Source: a virus (Duplodnaviria > Heunggongvirae > Uroviricota > Caudoviricetes). From it: DNA of 8,652 nucleotides. Shown one piece after another: positions 513-8,652 of the stretch; position 1 is the stretch's first letter, and each line of letters opens with the position of its first letter. The notes beneath the pieces were generated by a model, which was not told where the DNA came from, did no database searches, and saw nothing but the letters and a program-made list of their open reading frames with translations. Location: the IMG/VR virus record IMGVR_UViG_2778261122_000008; one strand, given 5' to 3'. The translations under genes and the position numbers were made by a program.

Positions 513-683
513 ATGCAACAGTTCGCTATTGCAGGGGCGGCATCGGTTCGCCCTTTCAACCCGATTTTATCGGTACAGCATTCACGAAAAAATATTTTAA
601 CCGGAGCAGACTTTAAACAACCAAGAATGAAAAGTTTGCTCGAAAAGCTTTGGGATATTTTGAAACAACAAGGCCGTCCATGA
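513..683 (+). CDS. Hypothetical small phage protein (56 aa)
   Basis: Internal ATG of track ORF 408..683 with AAGGAG 6 nt upstream. Lies downstream of the terminator at 423..448. Its stop overlaps the next start (ATGA at 680..683). Confidence 0.45.
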   Translation: MQQFAIAGAASVRPFNPILSVQHSRKNILTGADFKQPRMKSLLEKLWDILKQQGRP

Positions 684-787
684 GTTTTACAGATAACTGG
701 TCAGACGAAGAATTCATTCGTCAGATGAACAAAATGCTCAATCAGCACAAAGAACAGGAGAAAGATGATGATTCTGACTCTGAATGA
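680..787 (+). CDS. Possible very small acidic protein (35 aa)
   Basis: Hand-translated ORF MSFTDNWSDEEFIRQMNKMLNQHKEQEKDDDSDSE. Its start is ATGA-coupled to the upstream stop. It is below the ORF-track size cutoff and overlaps the start of the next gene by 23 nt. Confidence 0.25.
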   Translation: MSFTDNWSDEEFIRQMNKMLNQHKEQEKDDDSDSE

Positions 788-1076
788 TAAGCGTGAAATA
801 TCGCAAATAATCGCAAGTTTTACTGAGGAAGATTACGAACGAATCAACAGTGAAGTTGATCGCCTCTGCAAACGTTGCGACCCAATAAGCGAAATGCTTC
901 GCTCATATAAACCAGATGAACACACTAAGGACGCTATCGACTGGCTGGAAGATGATGACTGTAACTATCAGGAAAAAGCCGCTGAATGGTTCTGGGATGC
1001 AATAACCGAAAGAGTTAAGGCTGAATATGCCTTCGCAATATTCAAACGCAGACACATTTATGGAGAAGCAGCATGA
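765..1076 (+). CDS. Hypothetical acidic phage protein (103 aa) immediately upstream of recT
   Basis: AGGAG upstream (start could be ATG 765 or 768). Stop overlaps the recT start (ATGA at 1073..1076). Rich in Asp/Glu, net negative by hand count. No family recognised. Confidence 0.6.
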   Translation: MMILTLNDKREISQIIASFTEEDYERINSEVDRLCKRCDPISEMLRSYKPDEHTKDAIDWLEDDDCNYQEKAAEWFWDAITERVKAEYAFAIFKRRHIYGEAA

Positions 1077-1984
1077 GCAATATCGTTGAATTCGTTAAAC
1101 AGCAGGAGCAGTTATTCTGCGGGGCATTGACTGAACAGACGGTGACATGGGCTAAGGAAAGCCAGTTTGCAATTCAGTATTTCCAGAAAAATGATTACCT
1201 GGCTAAAACGGCACTGGCAAATCCAACCAGCGCACAGAACGCCATCATCAATGTTGCGGCGATCGGCATCACCTTAAACCCGGCTAGCAAACTGGCTTAT
1301 CTGGTTCCGCGCGACGGCATGGTGTGCCTTGATATCAGTTATATGGGATTGCTCCATATTGCAATGGAGTCTGGTGTTATCTCATGGGGTCAGGCAAAAC
1401 TTGTTCATGCTAACGATACCTATGAGTCAAACGGGCTTGATAAAGCACCAACCCATAAATACAACGCCTTCGGTGATCGTGGTGATATCGTTGGCGTTTA
1501 CTGCACAGTTAAGACGCCAGCAGGTGATTATCTAACGGAAGAGATGAGTCTGGCTGAAATTGAGGCTGTAAGGAAAACAAGCAAGGCGGCATTCAGCGAT
1601 AAAGGACCATGGGTAAATCACTGGAATGAGATGGCGCGAAAGACGGTCGTAAAGCGTGCAAGCAAGTATTGGCCTAAGGCATCACGTCTTGATAGTGCTA
1701 TTCACGTACTAAACGAAGAAGAAGGTGTGTGGACTGAACCAGTTATGCCGCACAAATCAGAGGAAGATATCCGCGAAGATGAACGGAAACGCCAGCAGGA
1801 AATAACGGATAAAGCACAACTTCTTTGTGATGAAATGGCTCAGGCTGAAAACATGGATGATTTGAAGCGATATTTTGCAGAAGCATATCGCCTGACATCT
1901 GGAATGAAATTGCAGCAGAACGTACAAGCCATTTACATAGAATGCAAAGCGAAACTGGAGGTTGCCAGTGAGCAAACTGTATGA
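1073..1984 (+). CDS. recT: RecT-family single-strand annealing protein (phage recombinase)
   Basis: 303-aa translation. The segment GPWVNHWNEMARKTVVKRASKYWP closely resembles the conserved RecT core as I recall it from Rac RecT (GPWVTHWEEMAKKT...KYLP). GGAG 7 nt upstream of ATG. Confidence 0.85.
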   Translation: MSNIVEFVKQQEQLFCGALTEQTVTWAKESQFAIQYFQKNDYLAKTALANPTSAQNAIINVAAIGITLNPASKLAYLVPRDGMVCLDISYMGLLHIAMESGVISWGQAKLVHANDTYESNGLDKAPTHKYNAFGDRGDIVGVYCTVKTPAGDYLTEEMSLAEIEAVRKTSKAAFSDKGPWVNHWNEMARKTVVKRASKYWPKASRLDSAIHVLNEEEGVWTEPVMPHKSEEDIREDERKRQQEITDKAQLLCDEMAQAENMDDLKRYFAEAYRLTSGMKLQQNVQAIYIECKAKLEVASEQTV

Positions 1985-2450
1985 AATAGCCAATGAATAC
2001 GCAAAGCTGATGGATTCAGATTTAGAGCCAGAGATGATTGCTGACACAATAGAAGGAATGGAAGGAGAATTTACCGATAAAATAGAGCAACTTCTTGCCA
2101 TTATTAAAAATGAATCTGGTTATGCTGAACGCCTCAAGGACGAGGCAAAGTCACTGAATGAACGAGCAGCAGTAATTCAAAATAAGATTGACAGCATTAT
2201 GGCGTATATAGCGTCATCGCTTGAAATGGTTGGCAAGAAAAAGATTCGAGCAGGTATTCACCAGGTAACAATCCGCAAACCGTCAGAAACTGTAGAAATA
2301 ATCGACTCAAGCGCCCTTCCTCCTGAATACGTTGAGTTTGAAACGACAATTAAAGCTGACAAACTGGCAATCAAACACCAACTAAAAGCAGGAATAAATA
2401 TCCCCGGCGCTCAACTCAAAGTTGGGAAACCTTCACTTCTTATCAAATAA
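1968..2450 (+). CDS. Sipho_Gp157-like protein (recombination-module accessory protein)
   Basis: GTG start with GGAGG 6 nt upstream (the track begins at TTG 1962). N-terminus (M)SKLYEIANEY and C-terminus ...NIPGAQLKVGKPSLLIK match my recollection of the Gp157 family, which often sits beside RecT/Erf genes. Confidence 0.6.
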   Translation: MSKLYEIANEYAKLMDSDLEPEMIADTIEGMEGEFTDKIEQLLAIIKNESGYAERLKDEAKSLNERAAVIQNKIDSIMAYIASSLEMVGKKKIRAGIHQVTIRKPSETVEIIDSSALPPEYVEFETTIKADKLAIKHQLKAGINIPGAQLKVGKPSLLIK

Positions 2451-2461
2451 CGGTATCTCCT

Positions 2462-2776
2462 ATGAAAAAGACTCCATGGGAGAAATGGGAAGTCGATTTC
2501 TTGCGCGAAGTGGCGGCGACAATGCCAGTTGAAGTTATCGCTGAAAAACTGGAAAGGACTGAAAAAGCAGTAATGGCGAAAGCAACAAGGATTGGCGCTG
2601 ACATTGTTAGCCGACTTCGTGGAAGACGCTGGACAAGAGCCGAAGTATCACTTTTCGGTAAGTTCTCCGCAGAAGAAATAGCAATTGCAACCTGCCGCTC
2701 AATTTATTCAGTAAGAGCTATGCGATACAAGCTAAAAAAACTCGATGAAGAAAGAGCAGGCATACGAATAAATTAA
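2462..2776 (+). CDS. Hypothetical DNA-binding protein with two tandem HTH-like repeats
   Basis: 104 aa. Internal duplication: WEKWEVDFLREV..PVEVIAEKLERTEKAVMAKATRIG versus RRWTRAEVSLFGKF.AEEIAIATCRSIYSVRAMRYKLKKL. The E-x-I-A...R-[ST]-x-x-[AS]-V pattern resembles sigma-70 region 4 / LuxR / Myb-type HTH. Confidence 0.6.
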   Translation: MKKTPWEKWEVDFLREVAATMPVEVIAEKLERTEKAVMAKATRIGADIVSRLRGRRWTRAEVSLFGKFSAEEIAIATCRSIYSVRAMRYKLKKLDEERAGIRIN

Positions 2777-2792
2777 CATGGAATAATTAACA

Positions 2793-3074
2793 ATGAAGCT
2801 AAACATCGACCTCGGCAAATACGTTATTACCGGAACCAAACACGACCTGATTCTTAATGAAAGAGGAATTATCAAAGAAGGTGAGAATGCAGGGAAAGAA
2901 ACACTAAGCCGTATCGGTTATTACAGCAAGTTTGAGCATCTGGTTAAAGAGTTATGCAACCGTGAAATCCTGTTATCTCAGGCGCAGACGCTACAGGATA
3001 TTCAGCAGCATATCGAGACTTTAGGTGTGTCACTTAGCATGGCTATTGACCAGTTCGTGGAGAGTAAATCATGA
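2793..3074 (+). CDS. Hypothetical phage protein (93 aa)
   Basis: ORF in the co-directional operon. Its stop overlaps the next start (ATGA at 3071..3074). No family recognised. Confidence 0.55.
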
Positions 3075-3235
3075 GAGGACTTGCATACAATCCCGGCATT
3101 CTTCCGGCAGAAATGATTATTCGCCAACGCGTAAAGCCAATGCCATCGAGAGAGGAATTGCTTAAGAGAAATAGTTTCGGTTATGTTAATGGCAACAAAT
3201 ATCTGAATGCGATGTGGCGGAGTGGGAAGAAATGA
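3071..3235 (+). CDS. Hypothetical small phage protein (54 aa)
   Basis: Hand-translated [61 protein letters not shown]-coupled at both ends (3071 and 3232). Below the ORF-track cutoff. Confidence 0.4.
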
Positions 3236-3762
3236 AACAAATGTCACTAATTGAGATGGATGGATTTCTGAAAGGTAAATGCATCCCAAGTGATTTAAAG
3301 GTTAACGAAACAAACGCTGAATATCTGGTGCGTAAATTTGCTGAAGCGCAGGCCAAATGCGCGGCGCTGGCGGCGGAGAATGCTGGGCTGAAACATGCAA
3401 TGGCTGTAACTCTTGAGCATGTGTCGGTCACGGATGCAGGGCAGGCCGGAGTTGCTGCAATGATTATCAACGATGCCCTGCACCACAGCGAAACTCCAGC
3501 CACCGATGCTTTTCTGGCTGAAATTCGTGCGGCGGCTCGCAACGAGGGGATTAACTATACCGCAAGCCGTCTTGCTGCTGCTTTCAACCACGGATTTATC
3601 AATAAGTCTTTACGTGAAGTTTTCGACGTTACGCGCATGATTCTGTCAGCGAAAGAAGAGTTGGCTAATGAAGCGCATCCGATTGATGGCCTGTCTGGTG
3701 AATATGCGGAGAAATCCCTTGAAGAATGGGCGGAACAGATTCGCAAAGGAGGCAAGCAGTGA
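3232..3762 (+). CDS. Hypothetical phage protein (176 aa)
   Basis: In-frame ATG at 3232 within track ORF 3214..3762, overlapping the upstream stop (ATGA). No confidently recognised domain. Confidence 0.6.
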
Positions 3763-4082
3763 GCAAAATGACAATCACAAAACAACGAGTAGAAAAAATC
3801 ATATATCGCCATGAAATGGGATTGAACAGCGATGTCACTTCCGAAGAGGTTTATGACCTGGCTGTACTGGCGCTGAATTTATCAAATATCGTAAACCTCA
3901 AGCGATACGAGCTTGATATGGATGGTTGTGACTCGTTCGGTCAGGATTGTGGCGCTGACATGACTGAAGATTCTGATGGTGCTTACGTCCTGTTTGATGA
4001 CGTGGTTAAGTTGTTTGAGTTTGATACAACCACTCAGAAGCCAGAAAGCCCAGCAAAGGAGGCAACCAGTGAGCAAGATTGA
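3759..4082 (+). CDS. Hypothetical phage protein (~107 aa), GTG start
   Basis: AAGGAGG 6 nt upstream of GTG 3759, which overlaps the upstream stop (GTGA). An alternative in-frame ATG is at 3768. Shares the junction motif CAGTGAGCAA with the starts at 1968 and 4069. Confidence 0.55.
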   Translation: MSKMTITKQRVEKIIYRHEMGLNSDVTSEEVYDLAVLALNLSNIVNLKRYELDMDGCDSFGQDCGADMTEDSDGAYVLFDDVVKLFEFDTTTQKPESPAKEATSEQD

Positions 4083-4578
4083 CTATCAGGCACTGCGTGA
4101 AGCGGCACAGAACGCGAAAAATTTAGGTGGGATTAAGAATTACAAGCGAGGCGAGCAAGCTGTTGCCGAATTTAAGTCCTTGATAACGCCACATATTGTG
4201 CTGGCGCTTCTGGAAGAACGGGAAAGAAACCAGCAATACATCAAACGCCGCGACCAGGAGAACGAGGATATTGCGCTTACGGTAGGGAAGCTGCGTGTTG
4301 AGCTTGAAGCCGTGCAGAAGACATCAGCGGCACGAATCGAAGCTATAGACCGCACTCACAAAATGTTCCAGCGTGAAAAAGACCGAGCCGATGCCGCAGA
4401 GAAGTGCATAGCAGAACTGTCTGCTAGCCACAGCAAATTGCGCGACACAATGGCTGGCATCCACAACACAATCCGAATGGATGGCGGCTATACGCCACTG
4501 GCAGCAATCCTTAACGCTGCTAAACGCGCATATGAAGAATCAGCAAGCGCAGCTGGCATTCGCATCAAAGGAGAGTGA
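4069..4578 (+). CDS. Ea22-like (Ead/Ea22 family) protein, coiled-coil rich
   Basis: GTG start with AAGGAGG 6 nt upstream. N-terminal IDYQALREAAQNA and ITPHIVLALLEERE resemble motifs I recall from enterobacterial Ead/Ea22-like proteins. Position between the recombination module and xis matches lambda ea22. Confidence 0.55.
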   Translation: MSKIDYQALREAAQNAKNLGGIKNYKRGEQAVAEFKSLITPHIVLALLEERERNQQYIKRRDQENEDIALTVGKLRVELEAVQKTSAARIEAIDRTHKMFQREKDRADAAEKCIAELSASHSKLRDTMAGIHNTIRMDGGYTPLAAILNAAKRAYEESASAAGIRIKGE

Positions 4579-4579
4579 T

Positions 4580-5011
4580 ATGACCACTATAACCGATAAG
4601 AAACAGTATCCAGGCGAGCAATATCTTAATGAGCTGATCACCAACATAGAGTTTGCTGCAAGGGCACCAGTTGAAGTCGTGAGAGCGATGGCAGCAGAGC
4701 TACAGAAGCGGCGCGAAGCTGATAGTGCCGAACCTGTAAGCCAAACTTACAAGTTGAACGAGCTATCTGGCAACTCTCCGGTAACTCCGGATAGTTGGAT
4801 AAGCTGTAGTGAGCGAATGCCGAACGATAAACAGTATGTTTGGTGTTGGGGTAAGTCTTACGGCTGGACTGAGTGCAATACCTTCGAAGGGTATTACGAT
4901 TGGTCGAGAAACAAATGGTGGGCAGTTACTGACGATGGGGAAGAACCGGCATCGAAAGTAACTCACTGGATGCCGCTACCAGAACCGCCGCAGGAGGTTA
5001 ACCGTGGCTAA
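4580..5011 (+). CDS. DUF551-domain phage protein
   Basis: ATG with GGAG 6 nt upstream. The C-terminal WISCSERMPNDKQYVWCW...KVTHWMPLPEPP matches the DUF551 hallmark (W..ERLP...THWMPLPEPP) as I remember it. Confidence 0.7.
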   Translation: MTTITDKKQYPGEQYLNELITNIEFAARAPVEVVRAMAAELQKRREADSAEPVSQTYKLNELSGNSPVTPDSWISCSERMPNDKQYVWCWGKSYGWTECNTFEGYYDWSRNKWWAVTDDGEEPASKVTHWMPLPEPPQEVNRG

Positions 5012-5110
5012 CCTGCAACTTGCCGTTAAAGGTAAATAACAATCCTCGCACTCGCGGGGATTTCTTTTATCTGAACTCGCTACGGCGGGTTTTGTTTTGT
5101 GGAGATGATT

Positions 5111-5410
5111 ATGGCCTGTTCAACATTCAACCCTCTAACGTTACAGAAATACCAGCCAGACCCTGAAGATTTATGCTCACTGTGTGGCGGAATTCATGGT
5201 AAAGCCGCCATGATCGAATGTAAGGACAAAATCCACATATGCCTTAATTGCGTTGATGTCCTCGTTGATATCAAAAATGAGAGAGAAGATAAAAAGCGTA
5301 GCGAGGCTGTTCGTGCCTTAGATTCATGGATGCGAGATGGGTATAGTGCTGCGCAAATTTATGACTTAGCAATATCAAAAGGCGAAATACCTGGAGTACG
5401 CATCGAATAA
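5111..5410 (+). CDS. Hypothetical Zn-ribbon protein (CxxC...CxxC), positional analogue of lambda ea8.5
   Basis: ATG 5111 with GGAG 6 nt upstream (the track begins at GTG 5099). Cys pairs CSLCGG and CLNC. Followed by a strong terminator. Confidence 0.6.
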   Translation: MACSTFNPLTLQKYQPDPEDLCSLCGGIHGKAAMIECKDKIHICLNCVDVLVDIKNEREDKKRSEAVRALDSWMRDGYSAAQIYDLAISKGEIPGVRIE

Positions 5411-5450: not shown

Positions 5451-5473
5451 AAGCCGCCTGATGGCGGTTTTTT
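5451..5473 (+). terminator. Rho-independent terminator
   Basis: CCGCC (5454..5458), loop TGAT, GGCGG (5463..5467), then TTTTTT (5468..5473). Confidence 0.7.
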
Positions 5474-5809: not shown

Positions 5810-6157
5810 GTGGAAGAAGAAATCTTCACTCGTGAAGAAGCAGCGTCGTATCTGAAGGTAGACAAAGGAACTATCACGCAGTGGATACGAAGTGGACGAC
5901 TTCAGGCCGCAAAGATAAATCCAGATAAACCTAAAAGCCCATATCGCATTTGCAAGTCAGACTGCATTGCGGCGCTTAAGTCTGTGAGACACAATAGCGC
6001 GGTGAATGCGGTTGATGTGCAGGAGGTTAAAGCATGTCAATCAAACTACGCGGTGGCACGTGGCACTGCGATTTCGTCGCGCCAGATGGATCAAGAGTTA
6101 GACGCTCTCTTGAAACATCGGACAAGAGGCAAGCGCAAGAACTTCACGATCGTCTGA
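5810..6157 (+). CDS. xis: Excisionase-like DNA-binding protein (HTH, Xis/AlpA type)
   Basis: GTG start with GGAG upstream. N-terminal FTREEAASYLKVDKGTITQWIRSGRLQAAKI is a typical excisionase-family HTH. Sits immediately upstream of int and overlaps it by 124 nt; the true C-terminus is uncertain. Confidence 0.6.
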   Translation: MEEEIFTREEAASYLKVDKGTITQWIRSGRLQAAKINPDKPKSPYRICKSDCIAALKSVRHNSAVNAVDVQEVKACQSNYAVARGTAISSRQMDQELDALLKHRTRGKRKNFTIV

Positions 6158-7194
6158 AAGCAGAAGCGTGGAGAGTAAAAAATCTCGGAGAATCACCGAA
6201 AAAGCTATTCAAGGAAGCCTGCATACGGTGGCTGCGTGAGAAATCGGATAAGAAGTCCATTGATGATGACAAGAGCATTATATCGTTCTGGATGTTGCAC
6301 TTCAGAGAAACCATTCTCTCTGACATAACAACAGAAAAAATAATGGAGGCGGTAGACGGGATGGAAAACCGCCGCCATCGCCTGAACTGGGAAATGAGCC
6401 GGGACAGGTGTTTGCGGCTTGGCAAGCCAGTGCCGGAGTATAAACCAAAGCTGGCAAGCAAAGGAACGAAGACGCGGCATCTGGCAATACTTCGCGCTAT
6501 TCTCAATATGACTGTTGAATGGGGATGGATTGACAGGGCACCCAAAATATCAACACCACGCGTTAAGAATGGACGAATCAGATGGCTTACAGAGGAGGAA
6601 TCTAAGCGCCTGTTTGCAGAAATTGCTCCTCATTTCTTCCCTGTGGTCATGTTTGCAATCACGACAGGCCTTCGCCGTTCCAACGTTACAGACCTTGAAT
6701 GGTCACAGGTCGATCTGGATAAGAAAATGGCATGGATGCACCCTGATGAAACAAAAGCTGGCAATGCGATCGGAGTTCCTCTTAACGAAACCGCATGCCA
6801 GATATTAAGAAAACAGCAGGGTCTCCATAAGAGATGGGTATTTGTCCACACCAAACCTGCCTACCGAAGCGACGGAACAAAAACAGCAGCGGTAAGGAAG
6901 ATGAGAACCGACAGCAACAAGGCATGGAAGGGAGCGTTAAAGCGGGCAGGCATTAGCAACTTCCGCTTCCATGACCTGAGGCATACCTGGGCAAGCTGGC
7001 TGGTTCAGTCCGGTGTCTCTCTTCTTGCACTTAAAGAGATGGGAGGATGGGAAACTCTCGAAATGGTTCAAAGATACGCCCACCTTTCAGCCGGGCATCT
7101 CACCGAGCACGCTAGCAAAATCGATGCGATTATAAGTCGCAATGGCACAAATACGGCACAAGAGGAGAACGTGGTTTACTTAAATGTGAGGTAA
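6034..7194 (+). CDS. int: Tyrosine-type site-specific integrase
   Basis: 386 aa with AGGAGG 7 nt upstream. C-terminal catalytic signature TGLRRSNV...HDLRHTWAS...LEMVQRYAHL (R...HxxR...Y). Ends 14 bp from the tRNA 3' end. Confidence 0.9.
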   Translation: MSIKLRGGTWHCDFVAPDGSRVRRSLETSDKRQAQELHDRLKAEAWRVKNLGESPKKLFKEACIRWLREKSDKKSIDDDKSIISFWMLHFRETILSDITTEKIMEAVDGMENRRHRLNWEMSRDRCLRLGKPVPEYKPKLASKGTKTRHLAILRAILNMTVEWGWIDRAPKISTPRVKNGRIRWLTEEESKRLFAEIAPHFFPVVMFAITTGLRRSNVTDLEWSQVDLDKKMAWMHPDETKAGNAIGVPLNETACQILRKQQGLHKRWVFVHTKPAYRSDGTKTAAVRKMRTDSNKAWKGALKRAGISNFRFHDLRHTWASWLVQSGVSLLALKEMGGWETLEMVQRYAHLSAGHLTEHASKIDAIISRNGTNTAQEENVVYLNVR

Positions 7195-7225
7195 CTTATT
7201 GATTTAAATGGTGCCGATAATAGGA
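7195..7225. other. Probable prophage attachment junction (att core overlapping the tRNA-Thr 3' end)
   Basis: Inferred from the int-tRNA arrangement. The core cannot be delimited without the other prophage end or an empty-site sequence. Confidence 0.3.
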
Positions 7226-7284
7226 GTCGAACCTACGACCTTCGCATTACGAATGCGCTGCTCTACCAACTGAGCTATATCGGC
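7209..7284 (-). tRNA. thrW: tRNA-Thr (anticodon CGU)
   Basis: The reverse complement reads GCCGATATAGCTCAGTTGGTAGAGCAGCGCATTCGTAATGCGAAGGTCGTAGGTTCGACTCCTATTATCGGCACCA (76 nt). It has a 7-bp acceptor stem GCCGATA/TATCGGC, a D-arm, the anticodon loop TTCGTAA (CGT), a T-arm GGTTCGACTCC and an encoded CCA. Matches E. coli thrW as I recall it. Confidence 0.93.
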
Positions 7285-7398: not shown

Positions 7399-8652
7399 TT
7401 ACGCACGAATGGTGTAATCACCAATGCCGATCCACTTATAAGTGGTCAGAGCTTCCAGCCCCATTGGGCCGCGCGCGTGGAGTTTTTGTGTGCTTACCGC
7501 AACTTCCGCCCCCAGTCCAAACTGGCCGCCGTCGGTAAAACGCGTAGAGGCGTTAACGTAAACAGCGGAGGAATCCACTTCGTTAACAAAACGCTGGGCG
7601 TTGCGCATATCGCGGGTCAGGATCGCATCGGAGTGTTGCGTGCCGTGTTCACGAATATGGGCAATGGCGTCATCCAGATCGCTAACGATTTTGACGTTCA
7701 AATCTAATGACAGAAACTCATCGTCATACTCTTCGGCTTTAACAGCCACCACCTTCGCGGGGCCTGCCTGCAACTGCGCCAGCGCGGCTGCATCAGCGTG
7801 TAACGTCACGCCGCTTTCCGCCATTTGTTTGCTTAATGCGGGCAGGAAGCTATCAGCGATGTTTTTATTCACCAGCAACGTTTCTACCGTATTACATGTG
7901 CTCGGACGCTGAGTTTTCGCGTTGACAATTACTTTCAGGGCTTCAGCGATCTCTGCACTTTCATCAACGTAAATATGGCATACGCCTATACCGCCTGTGA
8001 TCACCGGGATTGTCGACTGCTCGCGGCACAGTTTATGCAAACCAGCCCCACCGCGCGGGATCAGCATGTCGATGTATTTATCCATACGCAGCATTTCACT
8101 GACCAGCGCACGGTCAGGATTATCAATTGCCTGCACGGCACCCGCCGGTAAGCCGCAGGATTTCAGGGCGTCCTGAATCACCGCTACCGTTGCAGCGTTA
8201 GTGCGACAGGTTTCTTTGCCGCCGCGCAGGATCACCGCGTTACCGGTTTTCAGGCACAGGGAAGCAACATCAACCGTCACGTTCGGGCGCGCTTCATAAA
8301 TCACGCCAATCACCCCCAGCGGTACGCGACGACGCTCAAGACGCAGGCCGCTGTCCAGTACGCCGCCATCGATTACCTGCCCCACCGGATCGGCGAGATT
8401 GCACACCTGGCGCACATCGTCGGCAATGCCTTTCAGCCGTGCGGGCGTCAGTGCCAGACGGTCAAGCATCGCTTCGCTAAGGCCATTGGCACACGCGTCT
8501 GCAACATCCTGCGCGTTAGCGTTGAGGATACTTTCGCTTTGTGCTTCCAGTTCATCGGCGATTTTTTCCAGCACACGATTTTTTTCGCGGCTGGAGAGTT
8601 GCGCTAATTTATACGAGGCTTGCTTCGCGGCAATGCCCATTTGTTCCAGCAT
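7399..8652 (-). CDS. proA: Gamma-glutamyl phosphate reductase (glutamate-5-semialdehyde dehydrogenase)
   Basis: The 417-aa translation starts [21 protein letters not shown] and ends DYTIRA, recognisable as enterobacterial ProA. The start codon is at the window edge and the stop is TAA at 7399..7401. Confidence 0.95.

Follow-up and report, generated by a model that had tools for sequence, protein, structure and literature searches.

A run of five small genes in the early-left (pL) operon of a lambdoid prophage proves to be an ea/exo-xis region of the ordinary mosaic kind. The genes, g1 to g5, occupy positions 2462-4082 of an 8,652-nucleotide (nt) stretch of DNA (hereafter the window) from the IMG/VR virus record IMGVR_UViG_2778261122_000008 (Caudoviricetes), between a recombination module and a gene of the Ea22 type (Table 1). 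An earlier reading of the letters alone, the original prediction, had taken the stop/start overlaps between these genes to imply a co-translated unit with a shared function. Such a hidden five-gene module would have been notable; the evidence shows a familiar lambdoid mosaic accessory region instead. The reading that we favour, with a probability of about 0.7, is that g1 to g5 are five independently exchanged accessory cassettes of the early-left operon, with g4 as a candidate immune inhibitor, and not one functional unit. A shared function is not supported because the five families occur independently of one another, and the packing from which it had been deduced is operon-wide.

According to this reading, the five genes would be an arbitrary slice of the non-essential pL accessory segment of an HK140/HK446-like prophage, on one transcript that runs from cIII through the DUF551 gene. 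Cassettes kept in a fixed order would be swapped independently by recombination at junction sequences and at intragenic motifs. Codons 1-38 of g4, together with g3, would form a constant 5' 'handle' that receives different bodies, and g5 would be a free copy of one exchangeable domain.

Independent occurrence of the five gene families

Parts of 2462-4082 were matched by megablast in 277 phage records and in 2,144 of 5,426 complete Escherichia coli genomes; at least 80% of it in one place was found in none of 50,697 phage records and in none of the 5,426 E. coli genomes. The single families occur in the phage records at frequencies that differ more than 40-fold: tblastn returned 16 records for g1, 164 for g2, 686 for g3, 314 for g4 and 63 for g5. 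Joint occurrence was scored in an IMG/VR sample of the 80 closest loci per gene, all five proteins being scored on every locus, and anchored counts were taken from loci with at least 2.5 kilobases on both sides. Around g1 (62 loci), g3 was present throughout, g2 in 31 loci, g4 in 15 and g5 in 3. Loci anchored on g2 carried g1 in 10 cases out of 58, and those anchored on g3 carried g1 or g2 in none of 62. None of the other four families accompanied g4 in 35 of 44 loci, or g5 in 23 of 49. Pooled, the roughly 400 loci fell into 19 presence/absence patterns; all five families came together in only 4 of them, in the same order and with a g4 allele 48-58% identical. The 500-nt flanks of each gene formed 8-20 sequence clusters. 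Named phages carry subsets as well: HK97 has homologues of g3 and g4 only, HK446 of g2, g3 and g4 only, and in Sf6 homologues of g2 and g3 are followed by an unrelated gene. The families did not co-occur much more often than expected from their single frequencies, as those of a conserved multi-gene module should, and independent occurrence across genomes is what the original prediction had itself named as speaking against it.

Two things weigh against so complete a separation. The exact five-gene order is kept in one narrow lineage, in all six of the places shown out of 24 contigs read, with one of these same-arrangement contigs located at proA-thrW, and g1 to g5 may cooperate within such a lineage. 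The IMG/VR samples are moreover redundant, made of nearest relatives and biased towards prophages of E. coli and Salmonella, and the co-occurrence numbers are to be read as showing independence, not population frequencies.

Packing does not set the block apart either. The overlaps consist of ATGA at 3071-3074, ATGA at 3232-3235 and GTGA at 3759-3762, so that stop/start overlap joins three pairs of genes. Four further junctions with a stop/start overlap or abutment lie in the operon outside g1-g5, both upstream and downstream, and from 650 to 5011 every junction is an overlap or a gap of at most 16 nt. Tight packing is a trait of the entire early-left operon 650-5011, and is not special to g1-g5; the overlaps are the usual compaction of phage operons, possibly with re-initiation of translation. 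No terminator-like site was found on the + strand between 480 and 5041, no promoter-like site inside 2462-4082, and no promoter- or terminator-like signals at the ends of the five-gene block. The assignment of 2462-4082 to the accessory ea/exo-xis portion of a lambdoid pL operon is a supported one.

What the original prediction had described holds at the level of the sequence itself: the five open reading frames (ORFs) on the + strand, their coordinates and overlaps are all present, as is their location downstream of RecT/Gp157 and upstream of an Ead/Ea22-like gene. We consider them real genes because independent gene calls on identical public contigs give the same products (104, 93, 54, 176 and 107 amino acids, aa), because every ORF matches a PHROG family (Table 1) and two match Pfam families, DUF5405 for g2 and DUF2737 for g3, and because comparison with other alleles puts the ratio of nonsynonymous to synonymous substitution rates (dN/dS) at 0.07-0.5, under 1 in every case (g4 and g5 from one comparison each). 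For g4 a GTG start at 3214 is possible, and ATG 3232 is the start used by HK97 gp37, by HK446 gp27 and in the independent calls. For g5, most database homologues begin at an ATG equivalent to 3768 (MTITK...), and GTG 3759 is better spaced from a Shine-Dalgarno sequence (AAGGAGG, 6 nt ahead of it); the third overlap, at 3759, therefore hinges on the start chosen. The GTG start of the Ea22-like gene lies inside g5, with an overlap of 14 nt. In otherwise identical contigs, g4 is broken into ORFs of 61 and 100 aa (locus L409, 2262-2793), and in L405-L407 and L409 the call for g1 is 84 aa long and is separated from Gp157 by a wider gap, which suggests occasional inactivation or start-site change in g1 and g4.

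The five proteins are less novel than had been thought. Apart from a tandem helix-turn-helix (HTH) protein none had been recognised; homologues of them are annotated in HK140, HK446, HK97, Sf6 and P22. Judged from sequence, all five fall in catalogued families and are present at 93-100% identity in sequenced phages. Products 99%, 99% and 96% identical to g1, g2 and g3 (gp39, gp38 and gp37) follow RecT and Gp157 in the same order in HK140, whereas HK97 lacks g1 and g2, and g5 is found in neither of these phages.

Junction sequences and exchangeable domains

Breakpoints, defined as the end-points of blastn matches of at least 88% identity between the window and the roughly 400 loci, form clusters at 2760-2804 (junction of g1 and g2), 3060-3074 (g2 and g3), 3210-3224 (the end of g3), 3345-3374 (in g4, past codon 38) and 3750-3779 (g4 and g5). 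A last cluster, 4050-4124, spans the boundary of g5 with ea22 as well as the point where the conserved N-terminus of ea22 ends (4050-4064, 4095-4124). Among close relatives no breakpoint was seen from 1900 to 2760. Mosaic boundaries are not confined to the two ends of the block, the internal junctions and the interior of g4 being broken as well.

The two junction sequences of Table 1 form a 27-nt direct repeat, 93% identical, with the consensus GCAAAGGAGGCAA(G/C)CAGTGAGCAA(A/G)AT. The 3' part of the second copy, with the first ea22 codons, matches a stretch that the Sf6 record names 'bsq3; boundary sequence', and the idea of boundary sequences reportedly goes back to the papers on the HK620 and Sf6 genomes. 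The junction pattern is classical lambdoid mosaic architecture. As with the bsq sequences of Sf6, short conserved stretches stand at gene junctions and homology starts or stops there; unlike them, extra joints are found here inside coding sequence, at the end of the g4 handle (3345-3374) and at the g4 hinge. Protein domains are therefore shuffled, not genes alone, and shuffling of both at a few conserved joints is the pattern expected of arms-race loci.

The sole tight linkage among the five genes is that of g3 to codons 1-38 of g4. Of the 223 copies of this 38-codon handle, 196 have g3 ending at most 30 nt upstream, and 197 of 275 copies of g3 are followed by the handle. The C-domain of g4 has the handle upstream in only 57 of 110 copies. 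Bodies joined to the handle are of at least ten kinds, by eye including EaE-type, HNH-like and DUF551-tailed ones, and an HD-type deoxynucleotide phosphatase is a handle-bearing feature in some phages according to annotation. Further into g4, the hinge motif acts as a joint between exchangeable N- and C-domains. The same hinge links g5-like N-domains to EaE C-domains in the proteins P0023, P0025, P0034 and P0051; residues 1-93 of P0051 are g5-like (80%), and residues 94-181 are 87.5% identical to residues 78-165 of P22 EaE.

The fifth gene belongs to the same network. No match to g5 was found in Pfam, NCBIfam, PADLOC or the PDB, and its AlphaFold2 model, with a predicted local distance difference test score (pLDDT) of 54, is too poor for a fold search. 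An alignment across 40 diverse homologues shows the invariant columns of a core with two cysteines (Table 1), and C57 and C64 could form a knuckle for metal binding or dimerisation. Among 1.84 billion representative proteins searched, 82 clusters have this core, fused in some of them to DUF551, Ead_Ea22, ASCH/DUF3850 or dATP/dGTP pyrophosphohydrolase domains, with the stand-alone forms being the abundant ones. In g5, then, a domain that elsewhere forms the N-domain of EaE, Ea22 or DUF551 mosaics stands on its own, and g4 and g5 both come from a single network of 'Ea' proteins with shuffled domains.

An anti-defence candidate and its neighbours

Only g4 offers a lead on mechanism, being the one gene of the five whose family has a tested member. 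By BLASTP, g4 matches HK446 gp27 with an E value of 2e-35 (38% identity, 31% gaps); its identity is 39% to HK97 gp37, 39% to HK140 gp36 and 35% to P22 EaE (43% in the C-domain; tblastn E 1e-22), and many of the 314 phage records that match it are annotated Eae or EaE-like. An alignment of these five proteins has invariant columns. The elements common to g4 and gp27 are the N-terminal 38 residues, an AKC..LAAENAG coiled coil, the hinge and a Q-x-RKGG-x-Q tail; P22 EaE lacks the N-terminal handle and has the other elements. In P22, HK97, HK140 and HK446 alike, the EaE-like gene lies directly 3' of a DUF2737 gene, the family of g3, where the recombination locus has its distal end. The order in HK446 is abc2, gp29 (DUF5405), gp28 (DUF2737), gp27, xis and int, with xis directly after gp27, whereas g5, ea22, the DUF551 gene and a 99-aa gene lie between in the window.

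HK446 gp27, also called Oad2 (OLD anti-defence 2), rescues the toxicity of P2 OLD, an abortive-infection nuclease, in recB-deficient cells and abolishes OLD defence, according to a preprint of July 2026 (bioRxiv 10.64898/2026.07.10.737580), in which Oad2 and OLD form a stable complex. The same source gives as OLD triggers RecBCD inhibitors together with a small protein of the same locus, Gp33 (bioRxiv 10.64898/2026.07.10.737580). As reported there, Oad2 binds the P2 OLD ABC-ATPase/TOPRIM tRNase and blocks its activation when phage recombination functions disturb RecBCD. Both proteins are of nearly equal length (175 aa for Oad2, 176 aa for g4), and both genes follow a DUF2737 gene in an early-left operon with a thrW integrase that is 99% identical. 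We infer by analogy that g4 is a protein inhibitor of some immune effector. Like Oad2, it would be a stoichiometric inhibitor of a host or prophage effector, either a nuclease of the OLD type or some other protein that senses recombination and interference with RecBCD, with the exchangeable body setting the specificity.

This part of the reading has its own counterweights. The similarity of g4 to Oad2 is concentrated in handle, coiled coil, hinge and tail, at 38% identity overall; at residues ~100-165 the counterpart of g4 is the C-domain of P22 EaE, and the alignment with gp27 has gaps there. The Oad2-specific body, in which active Oad2 differs from an inactive homologue 54% identical to it, was not found conserved in g4. 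The bodies of HK97 gp37, 176 aa long like g4 and with the same handle, and of HK140 gp36 differ from that of g4 as well. Furthermore, the HK75 homologue of Oad2, 54% identical, fails to inhibit OLD (bioRxiv 10.64898/2026.07.10.737580), so that g4 is unlikely to act on P2 OLD in particular; the source is a preprint that has not been peer reviewed. We thus describe g4 as an EaE-family member that occupies the slot of Oad2 with a different body, and as a plausible candidate for an anti-defence gene. The original prediction had seen in this region a reservoir of accessory functions, anti-defence among them. Its accessory nature stands, and the anti-defence idea gains backing from g4, because g4 is homologous to the tested protein Oad2; that g4, g5 or g3 would counter a defence, and that g1 would bind DNA, is what we infer here.

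None of the five proteins matched PADLOC at E<=0.1, a result of little weight as the library holds defence and not anti-defence families, and NCBIfam gave no meaningful match for the five genes. Searches of solved-structure sequences with g1, g2, g4 and g5 had a best E value of 0.3. A relationship of g5 to the centre of Oad2 was considered and rejected: g5 alone gives E 1.5, the profile-profile probability is 0.6%, and where fused g5-like proteins seem to match gp27 (37%), the EaE hinge is the cause.

The constant pairing of g3 with the handle could also mean that g3 is a partner (chaperone, adaptor or co-inhibitor) of handle proteins such as g4, the pair, possibly with g5 as a specificity subunit, being one anti-defence device with swappable heads. 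Adjacency in the counts given above, its persistence from P22 (Orf56-EaE) to HK97, HK140 and HK446, a 4-nt overlap that could fix the ratio of translation, and the fusion of the g5 domain to EaE C-domains all fit this proposal. On the other hand, HK446 gp27 alone is enough for OLD inhibition (bioRxiv 10.64898/2026.07.10.737580), about 28% of g3 copies precede something else, and a conserved block of ~280 nt (3060-3345) acting as a recombination handle explains the adjacency equally well; we regard the device as unlikely, if worth keeping in view. A bolder version takes the g3-handle block, the hinge and the Shine-Dalgarno-GTG repeats as a recombination scaffold that swaps heads onto a constant context of expression and translation. 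Fast-evolving immune inhibitors would be exchanged here as cassettes, g4 and g5 would represent two specificities against OLD-family or other recombination-sensing abortive-infection systems, and g3 would be a required cofactor. The heads would comprise EaE C-domains, the g5 CX6C domain, and Ea22, DUF551, HNH, ASCH and nucleotide-hydrolase domains. We offer this tentatively, and think it improbable.

Alternatively, the five products might be developmental modulators rather than anti-defence proteins, which would tune lysis-lysogeny, induction or host physiology in the manner of the exo-xis genes ea22, orf60a, orf61 and orf63, g1 being a transcription factor and the coiled-coil proteins regulators. 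The region is in a position equivalent to exo-xis (PMC7093339, PMC3824215, PMC10789677), g1 has a DNA-binding fold, and g4 (via its C-domain) and the neighbouring Ea22-like protein both match phrog_368, Ea22 having been reported as pro-lysogenic (PMC7093339, PMC10834534). Yet homology to the characterised lambda exo-xis proteins was not found, and the Pfam Ead_Ea22 profile matches neither g4 nor g5 at E<=0.1. The nearest relative of g4 with a tested function inhibits an immune effector, and the extreme allelic turnover of the bodies suits an arms race better than conserved regulation. A developmental role for the set is, in our judgement, quite unlikely.

The position of g1, first after the recombination genes, raises the case for a part in recombination or DNA modification, as a counterpart by position of P22 Abc1/Abc2 or as a partner of phage DNA methyltransferases. 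Its three-helix HTH units superpose on the GcrA DNA-binding domain or on Myb repeats. Pfam GcrA and Myb_DNA-binding gave no match to g1, HTH_12 alone coming close, with 20.7 bits against a cut-off of 21.4; some 152-aa homologues have a precomputed Sigma70_r4_2 match. GcrA reads DNA carrying N6-methyladenine (m6A). It has a single DNA-binding domain and a C-terminal sigma-70-binding region, whereas g1 is a tandem repeat and lacks that region.

In close relatives g1 adjoins RecT and Gp157 without exception (62 of 62 loci), with a single cluster of upstream flanks (80 of 80) and the breakpoint-free interval mentioned above. That g1 is inseparable from RecT/Gp157 holds for these close alleles and was rejected as a general rule: divergent homologues (51-63% identity) come directly after Gam/YqaJ, DUF3799 or Erf modules in the three contexts examined, so that the position of g1 is conserved and its partner is not. 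Two of these three homologues directly precede a DNA methyltransferase (Dam in one case, a C5+D12 fusion in the other), which, with the GcrA-like fold, hints at a link of g1 to DNA methylation. The name 'Anti-RecBCD protein 1' that phage Gally gives to g1 is a further point for a role in recombination. However, BLASTP of g1 and P22 Abc1 yields no alignment at E<=100, so we reject this identity and consider the Gally label positional, without a basis in sequence. Within the window no methyltransferase follows g1, linkage among close alleles may reflect recent ancestry only, and the divergent contexts number just three. A recombination or modification role for g1 is, on this evidence, distinctly doubtful; in the reading that we prefer, g1 would be a sequence-specific or modification-reading DNA-binding protein in a post-recombination slot.

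The Pfam match of g2 to DUF5405 (E 5e-6) covers 72 of 88 profile positions. The protein is 96% identical to Sf6 gp24 and 99% to HK446 gp29, and it is also related to P2 Orf83, with homologues ~34% identical in P2-like early operons, between a TraR/DksA-like gene and gene A. One such locus, in the P2-like phage 899 (L403, 2501-2776), shows DUF5405 to be common to lambdoid pL and P2-like early operons, here in the position of Orf83. The label 'replication initiation protein' carried by PHROG 154 was rejected for g2, which has no match to a replication family in the PDB, NCBIfam or Pfam; it appears to stem from the annotation of small ORFs beside P2 gene A. This label and that of g1 in Gally are two database names that look unsupported. 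The most widespread of the five, g3, matches DUF2737 over positions 1-52 of 53, and is 94% identical to HK97 gp38, 96% to HK446 gp28 and 72% to P22 Orf56, with a further relative in Sf6 gp23. We found no literature on DUF5405, one incidental mention only of DUF2737, and nothing relevant on HK97 gp37 and gp38.

That the five genes form one co-translated module whose products act jointly in host takeover, exclusion or anti-defence is very improbable: co-directional genes with three 4-nt overlaps, an exact order kept in at least six contigs of one lineage and four other loci with all five families are outweighed by overlaps that run on beyond the block, its absence from all phage records and complete E. 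coli genomes, the spread in frequency, the 19 patterns, the breakpoints at each junction and the subsets in HK97, HK446 and Sf6.

The early-left operon at thrW and its relatives

The window covers the left arm of a lambdoid prophage, which is inserted at thrW next to proA. The thrW gene, the sole RNA gene that Rfam and tRNA scans detected in the window, lies outside 2462-4082; it marks the attachment site, 15 nt after the int stop. The xis and int genes are 99% identical to those of HK446, whose record carries an attP annotation at thrW, and the xis-like gene and int share 124 nt, an overlap also seen in P22 and HK446.

Table 1. Features of the window; positions are those of the 8,652-nt stretch, except in the last row, where they refer to the loci named
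Feature	Position	Strand	Description
RecT	1073-1984	+	Pfam RecT, E 3e-32
Sipho_Gp157 / Mu-Gam-like	1962-2450	+	Pfam Sipho_Gp157, E 1.5e-36
g1	2462..2776	+	104 aa, basic, isoelectric point (pI) 10; two GcrA/Myb-like three-helix HTH units; phrog_11492, E 5e-23
g2	2793..3074	+	93 aa, DUF5405; Pfam 27.3 bits, cut-off 21.6; phrog_154, E 6e-32
g3	3071..3235	+	54 aa, basic, DUF2737; Pfam 98.5 bits, cut-off 25; phrog_1117, E 6e-36
g4	3232..3762	+	176 aa, EaE family; phrog_614, E 3e-84
g4 handle	3232..3345	+	aa 1-38, conserved N-terminus
g4 hinge motif	3490..3531	+	aa 87-100; invariant across EaE-family proteins
Junction sequence, copy 1	3743..3769	+	GCAAAGGAGGCAAGCAGTGAGCAAAAT; Shine-Dalgarno, g5 GTG start, g4 stop
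g5	3759..4082	+	107 aa, acidic, pI 4.2; phrog_3126, E 9e-61
g5 core	3903..3992	+	R49-L78; invariant CX6C: C57, D58, C64, A66, M68, G74
Junction sequence, copy 2	4053..4079	+	Shine-Dalgarno and GTG start of the Ea22-like gene
Ead/Ea22-like gene	4069-4578	+	GTG start; Pfam Ead_Ea22, E 7e-20
DUF551 gene	4580-5011	+	ATG 4580 start; Pfam DUF551, E 8e-17
Two terminator-like hairpins	5041-5092		End of the packed operon
99-aa Cys-rich gene	5111-5410	+	Followed by a further hairpin, 5451-5470
xis-like HTH gene	5810-6157		
Integrase gene	6034-7194		
thrW tRNA-Thr(CGU)	7209-7284	-	tRNA scan
proA (host)	7399-8652	-	
Contexts of divergent g1 homologues	L410 3501-4507; L413 1301-4218; L411 3501-3949		

Upstream of RecT are a cIII-like stretch, a 35-aa Arf/Gp33-like ORF at 680-787 and a 103-aa ORF. 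The 35-aa product, encoded on the + strand (MSFTDNWSDEEFIRQMNKMLNQHKEQEKDDDSDSE), is identical to HK446 Gp33 over residues 1-16, and its SDEEFI motif is present in P22 Arf too. A trigger-like gene (the 680-787 ORF) and an inhibitor-like gene (g4) may thus both be carried at one locus, and g4, a divergent EaE/Oad2-family protein near RecT/Gp157 and a Gp33-like ORF, is a concrete candidate to take forward. Beyond g5, the first ATG of the DUF551 ORF (4481) is not its start, the PHROG match beginning at residue 34 of the long ORF. The 99-aa gene stands moron-like between the hairpins at 5041-5092 and 5451-5470. Its product is 97% identical to the Sf6 gene 19 protein and has a weak NCBIfam match (E 0.007) to the N-terminal zinc-binding region of ClpX.

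The nearest known systems include the ea region of P22 (Orf56, EaE, EaF, EaD, EaI, EaA, EaG, EaC) and the exo-xis region of lambda and Stx phages. The latter is poorly characterised, and its genes affect lysogenisation and induction (PMC7093339, PMC3824215, PMC10789677). The recombination module differs, being of the RecT/Gp157 type here and of the Erf/Abc or Exo/Bet/Gam type in P22 and lambda, and the five genes have no homology to lambda orf60a, orf61, orf63, orf73 or ea8.5. In P22, Orf56 is the relative of g3 and EaE that of g4, g1, g2 and g5 having no counterpart. All these regions nevertheless lie in the pL operon between the recombination genes and xis, and all consist, like the stretch described here, of small, tightly packed genes with largely uncharacterised functions.

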